Positions 42,319 through 56,283 of a stretch of 64,000 nt of DNA are shown in pieces. The position numbers and the translations under genes are program-made. Each line of letters begins with the position of its first letter. Position 1 is the first letter of the stretch. This DNA is from Candidatus Latescibacterota bacterium. GTDB taxonomy: Bacteria; Latescibacterota; UBA2968. The stretch is from NCBI GenBank assembly GCA_965116885.1, contig OZ220741.1:4224001-4288000 (forward strand). The letters are read 5' to 3'. The notes beneath the pieces are model-generated. The model did no database searches, was not told where the DNA came from, and saw only the letters and a list, made by a program, of their open reading frames with translations.

Positions 42319-43212
42319 ATGATCATTCGGATTTCAAACCTGACAAAAATATATCGCCGTGGCGCGGTTCCCGCCCTGGATGATGTCACATTGACCATTC
42401 CTCACGGAACATTTGGTCTGCTGGGACCCAATGGTGCGGGCAAGACAACGCTGATTAAAATTTTATCGACTCAGATGGACGCATCGAGCGGCAACGTGAC
42501 CATGGATGAGTTTGACCTCGTAAAAGACCGCACAGAAATTCGCCGGCGCCTGGGATATTTGCCCCAGCACTTTGGGACGTATCCGCAATTGACGGCCTGG
42601 GAATTTCTCGATTATATGGCTGTTTTGGGCGGCATGCATAATAGAAGTTCGCGTTTGAATCGCGTGGAGCAAGCTCTAAACGAAGTCGGCTTGTACGAAG
42701 CGCGCAATCGGCGTTCGGGCACATTTTCCGGTGGCATGATGCGCCGCCTTGGTATTGCACAAACCATTTTGACCGATCCAGAGTTTCTCATTGTCGATGA
42801 ACCCACCGTAGGACTCGACCCGGAAGAGCGCATCCGATTCCGGGGGATTTTGGGACGCTTGAGCAGCGATCGTGCAATTTTGATTTCCACGCATATTGTG
42901 GGCGACATTTCAAGCACCTGTGAAGATCTTGCGGTTTTGGATACCGGCCGGCTGATCTTTCGCGGTTCTCCCGGAGAACTCATTTCAAAAGCCGATGGCA
43001 AAACGTGGGAAGTACAGGTTGATGACGCTGGCTTTGAAATGCTGTCGCGTGTGTTTCGCGTGGTCACAGTAAATGTTGAGGGCGACATGATGCGTTTGCG
43101 TATGGTGGGCGATGGCGAGCCACCCGCTGATGCCGAAGCAGTCGCGCCCAATCTCGAAGATGCCTATGTCTATTTTGTCGGAGGCGATACCACAGGCGAA
43201 ATTGCCGCTTAA
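42319..43212 (+). CDS. ABC-2-type transporter ATP-binding protein
   Basis: GPNGAGKTT, YLPQ, FSGGM, IVDEPT, STH, C-terminal PNLEDAY. Confidence 0.93.
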   Translation: MIIRISNLTKIYRRGAVPALDDVTLTIPHGTFGLLGPNGAGKTTLIKILSTQMDASSGNVTMDEFDLVKDRTEIRRRLGYLPQHFGTYPQLTAWEFLDYMAVLGGMHNRSSRLNRVEQALNEVGLYEARNRRSGTFSGGMMRRLGIAQTILTDPEFLIVDEPTVGLDPEERIRFRGILGRLSSDRAILISTHIVGDISSTCEDLAVLDTGRLIFRGSPGELISKADGKTWEVQVDDAGFEMLSRVFRVVTVNVEGDMMRLRMVGDGEPPADAEAVAPNLEDAYVYFVGGDTTGEIAA

Positions 43213-43226
43213 AGGATTAATACACT

Positions 43227-53800: not shown

Positions 53801-55583
53801 GACTTCGGCAACCACCATTTTGGGCATGTTGCCTCTGGCACTCATATTTGGCGGCGATTACGAAATTTGGCCCCCCTTTGCGATTGTGGTAATCGGAGGG
53901 CTGGCTGTTTCAACGGTTTCCACCCTCGTATTTATTCCCGTGGTGTACATGGGAATTGATCAGACCAAAGCCTGGTTGACGGATATTGGGTGGTTCGGGA
54001 TCGTATTGGGAACAACGGCAGCCGCGGGATTGACATATTGGGTTGACGGTTATTACCAGAGTTTGTTCTGGACCTGTCTTTTGGCATTGCCAGCCTGGAT
54101 GTTGTGTATGGGTGTAATCTGGATAGTGCAACGCATTTATCGCGCGCGTATGGCTTCTCTTGCCGAGATCGGCAATATTGAACATCTCGAAATTCGCAAT
54201 CTGACCAAAATTTATGGCGCGCCGGGACGATTTAAGCACGAATGGGATCGCTTTAAGCGGCGTCATCAGCGCCTTTTAGAGCGCGGGCAGGTATTGATAG
54301 ATAAAAAGGCTATTAAGGACAGTTTGTGGTGGAAGTTACCACTTCTGGCACTTTTGATTTATTTGGAAACCTATTTTGAACAGGGAGCCTGGATATTTTT
54401 GGCAGGGCTTGCTATATGGGGCCTCGTGCATCACCTCATACTATGCGCGGCAGCTTTGCGCGATTTTCAGATTGAGAACAGATGGATATCACAAATCGCC
54501 CGATTGATTTTGCCGCTGGTCTTTATCGCCTTTATCCATTGGCGTTTGGAACTTATATCTTTGACCATCGCCACTACTGCAATCTACTTGCTCTATCGCA
54601 TCATCGGGTTTTTGGCAAATCGCGTTGGACAAGGTCGCGTTGACCCCGAGCATATACCGGGCAAATTAGGCCCTGTTAAAGGCATCGTGTACCGCGGGGC
54701 GGCAGCCGTTCCCCTGATTGGCGTTCCGCGCCCACAATTCCAGGCTCTCGGCGGTGTGAGTCTCGATATTCCGCGCGGGATGTTTGGGCTTTTGGGCCCC
54801 AATGGCGCGGGCAAGACCACGCTGATGCGGATTGTGTGTCGGGTTTTGTCGTCAAATTACGGGTCGGTACTCGCCAATGGCACAATACCGCTTACACATC
54901 GGAATATGCAGGGGGTGATTGGCTATTTGCCGCAGCACTTTGGCCTGTATCTGCACATGTCTGCGTATAATTATCTGGAATACCGCGCGCTTTTAGAGGG
55001 ATTTAAGGATGGGGTCGCGCGGCGCAAGCGCGTTCAAGAATGTCTGGAGCAGGTCAATCTGTGGGATAGGCGAGACGATCTGATTGGTTCGTTCTCTGGC
55101 GGTATGAAACAGCGCGTGGGCATTGCACAAACCCTGCTGCACTTACCGCAGATTATCGTAGTGGATGAACCGACAGCGGGATTGGACCCACTCGAGCGTA
55201 TCCGGTTCAGAAATCTGCTGGCGCGATTTAGCCAGGAAAAAATTATTATTTTTTCCACACATATTGTCGAAGATATTGCGGGCAGTTGCAACCGATTGGC
55301 CGTGCTGAATCACGGTAAGCTGCTTTATACGGGAACCCCGATTGAAATGCGCGATTTGGCGCGCGATAAGGTGTGGGAGGCTCTGCTGCCAGATCCGCGT
55401 TTTGAAGCACTGGAACGCGACCTGGATATGATTACACATGTGCGCGTGCCCGATGGGATTCGGGTGCGGTTTCTCGCCACTGATCCCATCCCAGAAGCGC
55501 GTGCTGTTGCGCCCACCCTCGAAGATGCGTATCTCTACCTTTTGCGACATGGCGATGAATACAAACAGTCTAACATGGCGTGA
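50859..55583 (+). CDS. RND permease fused to a C-terminal ABC ATPase domain
   Basis: Full RND (GMLMDNGIVVMEN, RVRPVLMTS), then extra TM helices, then an NBD with GPNGAGKTT, YLPQ, FSGGMKQR, VVDEPT, STH in one continuous 1574-aa ORF. Confidence 0.92.
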   Translation: MTLAGIAVRRPVTTAMFFLGLAILGAISLDRLPVQIFPELVRPEVFVTVTQQGYSPEQVERELVMPVEREVGKLEGIEAYESFSRQNNGGVRISYAPNTDMKFALLQLESRITRLQPLLPERARVNIQRFDSSDLSASVMQIHVLGEGDINWLREFAEEKIRPELEAVDGVVNAQVLGGQRTAIEIIVDPLMLQAHQLSMSDVRNRINAFNTRRQYLGRVYDGDQAYAVSIQGQFTDLVQIRRVVIKPELPLHLGDIAKILYGLQERTDLQRINGKAAVGIRIQKDDEANLIELAGELEDTIERVNSDLAYENIQLVISQNQAEIMNEALNFLKRAAVVGGLLGLFVLFLFLRNLRFVAVLLLAIPCSLLLTFNLMYMWDLSLNVLSMCGLALAVGMLMDNGIVVMENIFKHFEQGKSPKEAAKAGTDEIARAVVAATATTITVFIPVVFIQSDFQDILREFALSIAFPLLASLLVALTLVPALASKTLSLASRPPTGTGALIEMYTVCLKAGLRHRISVSLGIVGALVITLIISFFFMLQQDIRREESRFTVYISMPEGTTIEALDAVVGEIESAVRDLKGIDRFTTSISETQASINVELLPLSERPDQISVDLIKENLEESFGDVQNAIVSYEAIARTGRGGGGGRGGGGGGGIRGTRQASGGFNLEGGAPSEMAVIRGYDFTVLQMLADDLVYRLEELEEIDPNSVRADAERGASEVHVLPDEEVMFDRRLQVRQVLNAVSDANPRGARSNISFLTPEGTEIPIDVRNVEDPEEEGEGIAGLRQTPILGTGGTYIPLVEVSHVRRDQGRSMILRTDQSRRVIVSYRFAEEILQSQPLLEASRAYVQAVVSEMVLPEGYSIEMIEAEEETIYYWMMGIAALLIFMILASLFESLSAPVIILCTLPAAIIGSCWALILSGTGLTSQEAPMALLGLIVLSGIAVNNGIVLIDAIETLRRRGFRRERAVLTASRSRVRPVLMTSATTILGMLPLALIFGGDYEIWPPFAIVVIGGLAVSTVSTLVFIPVVYMGIDQTKAWLTDIGWFGIVLGTTAAAGLTYWVDGYYQSLFWTCLLALPAWMLCMGVIWIVQRIYRARMASLAEIGNIEHLEIRNLTKIYGAPGRFKHEWDRFKRRHQRLLERGQVLIDKKAIKDSLWWKLPLLALLIYLETYFEQGAWIFLAGLAIWGLVHHLILCAAALRDFQIENRWISQIARLILPLVFIAFIHWRLELISLTIATTAIYLLYRIIGFLANRVGQGRVDPEHIPGKLGPVKGIVYRGAAAVPLIGVPRPQFQALGGVSLDIPRGMFGLLGPNGAGKTTLMRIVCRVLSSNYGSVLANGTIPLTHRNMQGVIGYLPQHFGLYLHMSAYNYLEYRALLEGFKDGVARRKRVQECLEQVNLWDRRDDLIGSFSGGMKQRVGIAQTLLHLPQIIVVDEPTAGLDPLERIRFRNLLARFSQEKIIIFSTHIVEDIAGSCNRLAVLNHGKLLYTGTPIEMRDLARDKVWEALLPDPRFEALERDLDMITHVRVPDGIRVRFLATDPIPEARAVAPTLEDAYLYLLRHGDEYKQSNMA

Positions 55584-56283
55584 GTTGCTTTTCTTTGTCG
55601 GGAAAATGCACAGTCTGAGCATGAGAATCGTTTTTCACCGCAAAATGATTTTTATGTTTGGCGGGATTGTCGCGTATTACGCAATTTTGTACGCGATTGC
55701 AATCTGGCGTCCAGGTGAAGGGCTTTCAGTCGAACAAGCCCTCCATGTATTGGTTGAAGTGCCGGGCACGGTGCTTGCAATTTACCTGACGATGGATCTG
55801 GTGTCGGGGGAGAGGGATAAGGATACGCTTGAAATTCTGTTCAGCACGGCGGTCAGCCACTACGCGACCTGGGCCGTGAGAATTGTGTCGATCAGCGTTG
55901 CGCTATTTGCCACGCTGATGGCAATGAGCACGATTTCCTACTATTTTTTTGCGGAGTTTCCCTATCTCCTGGGGGGATTGAATGCATGTATCCCTGCCTT
56001 TTTTATGGTAGGAGCCACATTTCTGTTTTCTGTCTTGTGTCGCAGTGGCAATGCGGCTGGCATGCTCGCCGTTGGCCTTTTGATTGCGATTTTGCTTTCG
56101 ACGGAGGCGTTTGAGGATACATCGTATTACCTTTTTCTCAAGCCATTTGACCCGCCTTCAGATTTAGATACCAGCCTGTGGGTAAATCGCGTGGTCTTAA
56201 ACCGCGCGGGCATTGCCATTCTGGGAATACTGTTCATTTTTCTCGCTCTGAGACGAATGATAGACCGCGAAAAGCTGCTGTGA
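55549..56283 (+). CDS. ABC-2-type permease
   Basis: About 6 TM helices with ERDKDTLEILFS coupling-helix motif; overlaps the end of the RND-ABC gene. Confidence 0.8.
   Translation: MAMNTNSLTWRELLFFVGKMHSLSMRIVFHRKMIFMFGGIVAYYAILYAIAIWRPGEGLSVEQALHVLVEVPGTVLAIYLTMDLVSGERDKDTLEILFSTAVSHYATWAVRIVSISVALFATLMAMSTISYYFFAEFPYLLGGLNACIPAFFMVGATFLFSVLCRSGNAAGMLAVGLLIAILLSTEAFEDTSYYLFLKPFDPPSDLDTSLWVNRVVLNRAGIAILGILFIFLALRRMIDREKLL

Follow-up and report, generated by a model that had tools for sequence, protein, structure and literature searches.

The 64,000-nucleotide stretch of DNA analyzed here (hereafter, the window), from the genome of a Candidatus Latescibacterota bacterium, encodes between positions 42319 and 56283 a six-gene envelope-export cassette that is real, conserved and uncharacterised, and in which a single protein, here termed E, covalently joins a full permease of the resistance-nodulation-division (RND) type to an ATP-binding cassette (ABC) ATPase. 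We tentatively propose that this cassette works as an integrated ABC-RND export relay, a reading that we regard as close to an even call, falling slightly on the doubtful side. The six open reading frames (ORFs) of the cassette, all of them on the plus strand and arranged head to tail in the ORF list, are the following:

42319..43212, plus strand: gene A, soluble ABC ATPase of 297 amino acids (aa), Pfam ABC_tran match of 108.3 bits.
43227..46715, plus strand: gene B, 1162-aa membrane protein with a Golvesin_C match, an AlphaFold2 (AF2) model and Foldseek matches.
46733..47800, plus strand: gene C, RND-type periplasmic adaptor (membrane fusion protein) of 355 aa, matched by TIGR01730 and HlyD_D23.
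47797..50862, plus strand: gene D, ordinary RND permease of 1021 aa with 12 transmembrane (TM) helices, ACR_tran match of 767.9 bits.
50859..55583, plus strand: gene E, RND::ABC-ATPase fusion of 1574 aa, matched by ACR_tran and ABC_tran.
55549..56283, plus strand: gene F, small ABC-2-like permease of 244 aa, the longest ORF of which opens at 55438.

The initial annotation of the window had described this architecture, including the presence of two nucleotide-binding domains (NBDs) and two ABC-2-like permeases, and its description turned out to be correct in every part when Pfam/NCBIfam profiles, AF2 models and Foldseek comparisons were brought to bear on it. In particular, the HMMER analysis that it had proposed for 50859..55583 recovered ACR_tran (603.2 bits) and ABC_tran (89.3 bits) in a single 1574-aa frame free of stop codons. 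The following parts can be distinguished in the encoded protein, with model confidence given as the predicted local distance difference test (pLDDT):

50859..53948, plus strand: part 1 of E, residues 1 to ~1030, an entire RND permease whose second periplasmic domain contains a Gly-rich loop.
53949..54161, plus strand: part 2 of E, two extra membrane helices, residues ~1031-1101 (helices 2-37 and 40-72 of the AF2 tail model).
54183..54215, plus strand: part 3 of E, detached first strand (beta1) LEIRNLTKIY, residues ~1109-1119, ending in the A-loop tyrosine Y1119 (strand 80-90 of the tail model, block pLDDT 88).
54228..54707, plus strand: part 4 of E, insertion of ~160-165 residues within the ATPase (AF2 model, hydropathy).
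54738..55583, plus strand: part 5 of E, ABC ATPase core, from Walker A to the H-loop, and C-terminal accessory domain (ABC_tran 89.3 bits, residues 1299-1440).

The first part is matched by NF033617 over residues 6-1034 and has MdtB (9lyq_B) as its best solved relative (E-value 1e-71, aligned over 7-495 and 775-1040), while the remainder of the protein was modelled with AF2 as residues 1030-1574 (model m36ef68d06dac, 47 sequences, mean pLDDT 81.7). The C-terminus of AcrB-type RND permeases is cytoplasmic, and the two helices of the second part are predicted by this model to lead the chain back to the cytoplasm; by analogy, the parity of the topology would be kept along the protein, with helix blocks of 12, 2 and 4 that each return to the cytoplasm. 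Six extra helices in total follow the RND permease, four of them inside the ATPase, and a profile comparison of these helices with F detected no homology (hhalign E-value 0.21).

The presence of a complete ABC ATPase at the C-terminus of E, as put forward in the initial annotation, stands insofar as all the motifs are there, but it has to be amended to accommodate four membrane helices inserted between beta1 and the Walker A strand. When 13 or 47 sequences are aligned, the NBD motifs GPNGAGKTT, LPQ, FSGGMKQR, IVVDEPTAGLD and STHI are invariant or nearly so, and both K1117 and Y1119, the latter of which we take to be the adenine-stacking residue, are invariant. The strand that carries these two residues, LEIRNLTKIY, corresponds to the first strand of A (RISNLTKIY) and is set off by ~165-175 residues, including four long helices, from the rest of the NBD, which resumes at ~residue 1294. 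A and E both possess the full ABC_tran motif set (Walker A, Q-loop, signature, Walker B, D-loop, H-loop and the A-loop aromatic residue), and in E this set does not form one contiguous soluble domain. According to the AF2 model, the insertion comprises a helix (tail residues 95-112), the four long helices (120-228), which may be read as a membrane bundle, and a short helix (242-254); hydropathy peaks at residues 1179-1250, and the ATPase of A has no such insertion. The best Foldseek matches of the tail model are TM_1403 (4yer_A, E-value 2.5e-20), NosF (7osf_B, 1.0e-17) and 7o0y_C (3.8e-17). In VIA-align superpositions, residue 1-2 of solved NBDs falls on tail-model residue 77-80, and LptB (4p33_A) aligns across the insertion with a Z score of 26.3 and a root-mean-square deviation of 2.2 Å over 229 of 235 residues. 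Since nearly whole solved NBDs align across the insertion, the ATPase of E can be considered complete but split by a membrane bundle of ~165 residues, and its invariant motifs and A-loop tyrosine, together with a modelled beta1 in the usual place, suggest that it is competent despite the split. We found no published description of an ABC domain in which a membrane bundle stands between the core and the segment made up of beta1 and the adenine-stacking residue.

A phmmer search with the linker of E (residues 1040-1290) against 1.84 billion representatives returned 45 proteins, among which no relative from outside the fusion family was found and every full-length protein is fused. Fifteen are fused proteins of at least 1355 aa, with the match located at ~850-1300 behind an N-terminus of RND length; eight lack part of their N-terminus and have 160-660 residues ahead of the match (only in P0123 was RND sequence read), and the 22 that span at most 558 aa are fragment-like. 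P0155 (526 aa, starting with M) and P0125 (501 aa, starting with V) could be either separate genes or miscalled pieces.

This conservation refutes the possibility, to which we assign a vanishingly small likelihood, that E is an artefact, an RND and an ABC gene merged by a sequencing or assembly error that erased the stop codon or frame shift separating them. The identical frame recurs across many assemblies and several phyla, well beyond the assembly analyzed here, and no split forms exist among full-length matches, in agreement with the view that the homologues are fused genes rather than pairs. Both PF00873 and PF00005 are present in all 120 homologues listed for a search with E residues 1030-1574; 110 of these are at least 1486 aa long, and their source names include Gemmatimonadota, Latescibacterota, Acidobacteriota, KSB1, Calditrichota and Mangrovibacterium. 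A survey that scanned one reference genome per species kept 80 loci, 53 of which carry RND and NBD in one ORF; among the others, the gene is in pieces in L038 and stops at a contig edge in L066, and 25 are plain ATPase genes retrieved through Walker-motif matches. The carriers extend to cultured organisms (Marivirga tractuosa, M. sericea, Draconibacterium mangrovi, Maribellus maritimus, Parabacteroides massiliensis and Bacteroides sp. 224), and the nearest loci include one from a Candidatus Latescibacterota bacterium with 98% identity (L001). Within the window's phylum, 77 of 151 sampled genomes yield a match that reaches into the linker and 72 an end-to-end match, mostly as open frames of ~1570-1600 aa, and in the Bacteroidota sample at least 4 of 401 genomes match with an E-value of 1e-130 or better, a count that is a lower bound, with 3 candidates scored per genome.

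Reads across the fusion junction had also been proposed as a check in the initial annotation, and contigs assembled from public runs do cross it. A 6678-nt contig from an independent metagenome run (X3, record 19) runs through 53400-55700 as a single piece and differs from it by 10 substitutions, without any gap, and a 959-nt contig (X2, record 12) covers 53669-54627. RNA-library contigs from two further runs (X15 and X17) cover parts of 53538-55700 at 95-100% likeness; DNA carry-over being possible and none of them spanning the junction, they are not taken as a sign of transcription. No support for an artefact was found other than a lone 2-nt deletion at 55381 in the X15 contig (RNA library, depth 12.4), which is located in the C-terminal domain of the ATPase of E, a long way from the junction, and which is absent from the X2 and X3 DNA contigs and from the X17 contig. 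That the fusion and the cassette are real is certain for practical purposes. At least half of the sampled words of the stretch 53400-55700 are found in 15 public runs, mostly labelled as sponge metagenome, and some part of it is present in 20 run-table rows from 11 studies; the source organism appears to be a sponge-associated Latescibacterota bacterium. Cassette genes in pieces were observed in a Prolixibacteraceae metagenome-assembled genome (D and E in L038, 7588-15440), in Marivirga tractuosa ac6 (B and D in L012, 2446-5776 and 8506-11677) and in L016 (A and D), and these may be pseudogenes or long-read frameshift errors.

The companions of E are as constant as the fusion itself. A search across genomes for the six-gene synteny, suggested in the initial annotation, revealed that gene order is kept wherever contigs reach. 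Considering, among the 53 fused loci, those with enough contig to judge, E is accompanied by F in 49 of 49, by D and by C in 46 of 46 each, by B in 43 of 43 and by A in 19 of 19, and the tandem order C-D-E, which is the gene layout of MdtABC and MuxABC, is seen in the window and in all 46 evaluable loci. An extra gene of ~500 aa lies between B and C at 42 of 44 evaluable loci and codes for an outer-membrane factor (OMF), with OEP matches in Pfam of 1.9e-45 in L009 and 4e-39 in L042. The usual order of the cassette is A-B-OMF-C-D-E-F, and the window harbors a six-gene form of it. The two loci without the OMF gene belong to close relatives of the window; in its phylum the gene is kept in two other families (L081 and L082) and missing in L083, a genome of the window's own order. 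Given that the OMF is encoded in 42 of 44 loci, other families of the phylum included, its absence is best explained as a secondary, lineage-specific loss. The remark in the initial annotation that the operon has no TolC gene is accordingly true of the operon, in which no OEP/TolC gene is found within 42319-56283 and the OMF is not encoded with the pump as in tripartite systems, but describes a peculiarity of this lineage. Seven OEP genes are located elsewhere in the window's genome.

No shared biosynthetic or regulatory partner emerged from the neighborhood of the cassette, as the 38 flanking ORFs from 8 loci that were compared with Pfam are unrelated housekeeping genes; with flanking genes that are not conserved, the cassette can be viewed as self-contained. 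The response regulator and glycosyltransferase genes that follow F in the window are likewise absent from L001, its 98%-identical relative. In Draconibacterium mangrovi (L009, 9466-9861), a 132-aa gene of the PD-(D/E)XK nuclease family (PDDEXK_3, 143.8 bits) is located between D and E, where it breaks their usual tight coupling.

Taken as a relay, the cassette might operate in the following manner. Like MdtB and MdtC, D and E would assemble into a mixed RND trimer, to which the adaptor C and, where present, the OMF would dock. The six-helix tether would keep the ATPase of E at the membrane, beside the RND permease, and there the two paralogues, this ATPase and A, would pair on B and F as the ABC-2-like permeases, giving rise to an ABC exporter attached to the RND pump. 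ATP hydrolysis would move an amphipathic substrate from the cytoplasm or the inner leaflet, the inactive M1-like/Golvesin_C ectodomain of B would hold it in the periplasm, and the RND pump, presumably proton-driven, would pass it on via the adaptor, and via the OMF where there is one. As for the substrate, a peptide- or glycan-bearing lipid, or a peptide, is our guess. On the RND side, the scheme is supported by the RND-type nature of the adaptor C and by the kinship of E to MdtB, its best solved relative, which belongs to a heteromeric pump. A stronger version seems unlikely to us, namely a new class of envelope pump that couples ATP hydrolysis to the proton gradient in one complex, with the tether and the inserted bundle passing the ATPase cycle straight on to the RND trimer and so gating or timing its rotation; if true, extraction from the inner membrane by the ABC part and expulsion by the RND part would constitute one concerted stroke.

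The ABC side of the cassette starts with A, which largely exceeds the Pfam cut-off for ABC_tran (25 bits), carries a C-terminal accessory domain and displays the motifs GPNGAGKTT (Walker A), LPQ (Q-loop), FSGGM (signature), LIVDEP (Walker B) and STHI (H-loop). It is 45% identical over 274 aa to residues ~1290-1563 of E, with the unusual motifs ERIRFR and LEDAY common to both, and on this sequence likeness A and the NBD of E can be considered paralogues. Assignment of A to GldA was rejected, with equivalog scores of 177.5 bits for A and 168 for E against a cut-off of 402.6; B scores 21.3 bits with the GldF equivalog (cut-off 288.5), which places the pair outside GldAFG, and the best NCBIfam match of A is the DrrA subfamily model, at 191.2 bits against a cut-off of 312.45.

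B had been described in the initial annotation as an ABC-2 permease fused to a pseudo-peptidase and to a CBD-like domain, and elements that resemble all three can be recognized. Golvesin_C, which may correspond to the CBD-like domain, is present at residues 986-1108 with 59.2 bits (cut-off 31.6), whereas Peptidase_M1 (23.5 against 27.7) and ABC2_membrane_5 (16.7 against 25) fall below threshold; the B orthologue in L009 reaches 29.6 bits with ABC2_membrane_2, above its cut-off of 27.2. In the AF2 model (m1cae69c7ca82, mean pLDDT 75.3), seven N-terminal helices (2-298; six ABC-2-like and one extra TM helix) precede a series of mixed domains, namely an M1-aminopeptidase-like body, a beta-sandwich, Golvesin_C and a disordered Gly/Arg-rich tail. 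If the N-terminus of B is cytoplasmic, as it is in ABC-2 permeases, the body of B would lie in the periplasm by virtue of the seventh helix. The top Foldseek match in the PDB is IRAP (4p8q_A, E-value 9.6e-18, ~680-690 columns, 11% identity, TMt ~0.41), followed by ERAP1 and tricorn-interacting factor F3, with E-values that range from 1e-17 to 1e-14, and Protein Atlas provided only leads for residues 285-980 (unnamed clusters at 0.90-0.93 and M1 clusters at 0.88-0.90). Neither HExxH nor GxMEN is found in any of 43 B-family proteins, and pseudo-peptidase is thus a fair name for B, in that it combines an M1-like fold with the absence of both M1 motifs throughout the family. Gly/Arg-rich low-complexity stretches of the GRGGxGG type, presumably periplasmic, occur in B at 45309-45443 (residues 695-739) and 46587-46712 (residues 1121-1162) of the window, with pLDDT below 50, and in E at ~52770-52860 (residues ~640-668); the stretches of both proteins recur at equal alignment positions in their orthologues.

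The ectodomain of B, ~860 residues long, folds like a peptide-binding enzyme but lacks the catalytic motifs, as is typical of ABC systems with a task in the periplasm, and it lends some appeal to the idea that the ABC part transports nothing and acts as a mechanotransducer or regulator, as in MacB, LolCDE, FtsEX or NosDFY. According to this explanation, the M1-like domain of B would capture a substrate from the periplasm or the outer leaflet, from where RND pumps are known to take substrates, motion of this domain driven by ATP hydrolysis in the cytoplasm would load or gate the RND pump, and the latter alone would export. NosF of NosDFY is among the closest structures to the NBD of E, and the NBDs of FtsE and MacB reach Z scores of ~25; such similarity is, however, generic for NBDs, with a Z score of at least 8 for 998 of 998 chains, and F, which has no ectodomain, resembles a plain small permease. 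We deem this explanation unlikely, and the relay, in which the same ectodomain would hold the exported substrate, remains our preferred reading.

On the RND side, C is recognized by the RND_mfp model TIGR01730 with 185.5 bits over residues 36-350 (cut-off 94.9) and by HlyD_D23 with 89.5 bits, and both D (match over residues 5-1013) and E far exceed the ACR_tran cut-off of 28 bits and qualify as RND permeases. The best NCBIfam model for both, NF033617 (RND_permease_2), yields 617.9 bits for D and 490.4 for E against a cut-off of 1250, and with scores so far below it a multidrug function should not be inferred for either. As for F, the 50 orthologues measure 233-247 aa and align from ATG 55549, which is on these grounds its most likely start and from which F overlaps the end of E by 35 nt, rather than 55438, where the longest ORF opens. 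Hydropathy analysis of F reveals 6-8 peaks.

The residues of the proton relay bear on a different proposal, namely that the fused ATPase replaces or supplements the proton gradient via the six-helix linker and E is an ATP-driven RND permease. At the relay sites of AcrB (D407, D408, K940 and R971), E carries D400, N401, N945 and R977; the two asparagines, which stand in for D408 and K940, are invariant in 13 sequences and, along with the covalent link, speak for such a substitution of energy source. D reads DN in TM4 (motif GMLVDNAIVVIE) and ND in TM10 (motif GIAVNDAIILVD), with DN in 42 of 45 D orthologues, and neither D nor E has the AcrB-type relay of HAE-1 RND permeases. Yet the unfused relatives behave in the same manner: a motif scan of the 15 unfused RND paralogues of the same genome, based on simple regular expressions that failed to pick up one of the motifs in several paralogues, detected no DD in TM4 and no Lys at the position of K940, but seven DN, nine NN and four ND. 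With the pattern shared by unfused paralogues and D orthologues, it must be regarded as a trait of this RND subfamily and not of the fusion, and we dropped the DN/NN relay as a sign of an ATP-driven RND permease. Two of the AcrB relay residues, moreover, are kept in E, and an NBD monomer needs a partner NBD for ATP hydrolysis, all of which makes this proposal very improbable.

The degree to which the ABC part depends on the RND pump can be addressed through a second A-B pair in the same genome (G000, 1462566-1466833), which has no RND, adaptor or F gene nearby. Its A2 is a 299-aa ATPase that scores 551 bits to A, and its B2 a 1112-aa permease with an ectodomain that scores 1750 bits to B, from which it follows that the A-B module can exist without an RND permease. 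The window's genome offers the only demonstrable case of such a pair: in three genomes that were fetched for having an A-like ATPase but no E, either the cassette is cut by a contig end (G091 and G041) or a plain ATPase occurs without B (G102). An 876-aa glycosyltransferase gene directly follows the second pair (G000:C1:1459810-1466833, minus strand) and is a paralogue (796 bits) of the GT4/GT28 gene located two genes after F; both copies of the A-B module are therefore found near the same kind of glycosyltransferase, a gene that is missing after F in L001 and L002.

A stand-alone pair is what one would expect if the cassette amounted to co-assembly, with one or more ABC exporters and an RND pump that are mechanistically independent, though engaged in a common pathway or against a common stress, and a fusion that secures co-expression, co-localisation or stoichiometry, and there may then be two homodimeric ABC units, A2B2 and (E-NBD)2F2. 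The fact that each NBD gene lies directly 5' of a permease gene (A-B and E-F) points in the same direction, as do the canonical NBD motifs of A and E, neither of which has a degenerate site of the kind expected in an obligate heterodimer. A mere tether, on the other hand, needs no invariant strand and A-loop split off by a conserved four-helix insertion, and it is hard to reconcile with a gene order and a fusion kept across phyla, again without split forms among full-length matches; two homodimeric ABC units also fit awkwardly with a trimeric RND pump. We consider co-assembly improbable and retain the relay as the tentative working model.

For the relay itself, binding was addressed directly in a predicted complex of the E tail with F, which obtained a score of 0.43 (runs at 0.43, 0.43 and 0.45) against 0.21 for the best of 3 controls, with at least 84% of contacts shared among runs and a partner pLDDT of at least 69. 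In the calibration, the mark applied here was passed by 116 of the 157 solved complexes and by 2 of the 215 mismatches, and passes with a score of at most 0.60 comprised 18 of the 157 solved complexes and both mismatches. An NBD with an ABC-2 permease being a textbook pair, the pass may come from likeness to solved complexes. The single dual-energy machine with a heterodimeric ABC part that was envisaged in the initial annotation is plausible, with weak support from the predicted contact of E with F, and in view of the stand-alone A-B pair its heterodimeric part may instead be two homodimers.

Several observations weigh against the relay. The contact between the E tail and F is weak support and the sole direct test of binding, and D/E co-assembly, the pairing of A with the NBD of E and the exchange of substrate from the ABC to the RND part are inferred only. 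The existence of the second A-B pair implies that A-B may act as its own homodimeric transporter, with E-NBD/F as a second one. The identity of F as an ABC-2 permease relies on an ABC2_membrane_2 match of 18.4 bits, below the cut-off of 27.2, and on a weak collinear profile match to the N-terminus of B (hhalign E-value 8.7e-4, probability 23%). The AcrB-type D408 and K940 are missing from both D and E, and proton coupling is hence assumed rather than read from the sequence. No orthologue of the cassette OMF was found in the window's genome, where the best candidate scores 29.8 bits against 390-580 between orthologues, and in this lineage the path may end in the periplasm. The 2-nt deletion in the X15 contig mentioned above must be counted on the same side.

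The layout of the cassette is that of a tightly coupled operon, as the initial annotation had stated, with intergenic gaps of 14 nt between A and B and 17 nt between B and C and overlaps of 4 nt at both C/D and D/E. It is delimited by two hairpins:

42213..42240, plus strand: terminator-like hairpin with a perfect 12-bp stem, between an fdhD-like gene and A.
~56335-56378, plus strand: terminator-like hairpin with a U-run, 3' of F.

The upstream hairpin (-26.1 kcal/mol, z -5.67, equalled by 0 of 200 shuffles) separates the fdhD-like gene from the operon, making A the first gene of a new unit, and an AGGAG sequence lies 8-12 nt upstream of ATG 42319; a simple promoter scan detected no convincing promoter upstream of A. 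The downstream hairpin (-22.7 kcal/mol, z -5.45, equalled by 0 of 200 shuffles) bears out the earlier claim that the operon closes in a terminator, and it is absent from the plus-strand list of a simple terminator scan. Past this terminator, a 268-aa response regulator with an AraC-type helix-turn-helix (56692-57498) overlaps by 4 nt the start of the next gene, which encodes an 841-aa protein with GT4 and Glyco_tran_28_C domains (57495-60020); the two form a separate unit that is not conserved beside the cassette. At 37099-40440, the window also encodes a protein of 1113 aa, probably secreted or a surface protein, in which five Lamin Tail Domain repeats (235.6 bits) and, at the C-terminus, a weak likeness to FlgD_ig were recognized.

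Full-text literature searches, with subscription journals outside their coverage, found no description of an RND::ABC fusion, in accordance with the statement in the initial annotation that no characterised example was known. To the fusion as such, the window adds an OMF-less form of the cassette, a stand-alone A-B paralogue, a control for the proton relay and independent contigs that span the junction. With a fusion kept alongside fixed partners in several phyla, including cultivable Bacteroidota, the question of whether the two transporter classes form one machine with hand-over of a substrate becomes testable. The lineage of the window constitutes a natural experiment, in which a dedicated outer-membrane channel has been dropped and the rest kept, and it is found in sponge metagenomes of several studies.

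Among known systems, the closest on the RND side are MdtABC-TolC and MuxABC-OpmB, which share with the cassette the tandem RND genes behind one RND-type adaptor gene and, in most cassette lineages, an OMF gene. No equivalog model scores higher for D and E than those of MdtC and MdtB, but the scores (400 bits for D and 318.1 for E with MdtC, against 1774; 362.1 and 278.6 with MdtB, against 1584) leave both proteins outside these families. Mdt forms a B2C trimer. In contrast to both pumps, the cassette has six extra helices and an ABC ATPase in E, a second ATPase and two ABC-2-like permeases in the operon, and a DN/NN relay motif instead of DD/K. The type of relay proposed here finds its nearest counterpart in mycobacteria, where the ABC-2 exporter DrrABC and the RND protein MmpL7 are both needed for the export of phthiocerol dimycocerosate (PDIM) lipids to the surface; an ABC-2 exporter and an RND protein serve one lipid in that case, but as separate proteins, with a different RND family, no adaptor or OMF and no fusion. 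MacAB-TolC and YbhGFSR resemble the cassette in encoding an ABC transporter with a membrane fusion protein and in using an OMF. MacB works by periplasmic mechanotransmission, and it differs from the cassette in being a fused NBD-4TM protein with a fold of its own and no RND partner, whereas the cassette adaptor is of the RND type, comes with an RND pair and scores 60.8 bits against the MacA cut-off of 342.

On the ABC side, NosDFY and the type V ABC-2 systems (Wzm-Wzt, TarGH, ABCG and ABCA) provide the closest NBD structures (TM_1403, NosF, LptB, ABCG and ABCA), and they have in common with the cassette an NBD with a C-terminal accessory domain and six-helix permeases beside the NBD genes, but in none of them is the NBD joined to an RND permease or interrupted by a membrane insertion. 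The M1 zinc aminopeptidases IRAP, ERAP1 and factor F3 share their multi-domain fold with the ectodomain of B over ~680 columns and differ from it in that B is only 11% identical (TM-score ~0.41), lacks HExxH and GxMEN and is anchored to an ABC-2-like permease; in this ectodomain, as in other known cases, an enzyme fold has been reused, probably for binding. None of these nearest known systems joins both transporter classes in one polypeptide or splits an NBD by a membrane insertion. RND and ABC exporters are the textbook alternatives for energising transport across the Gram-negative envelope, and the cassette raises the prospect that a single envelope machine may combine two classes of pump that are commonly presented as distinct.

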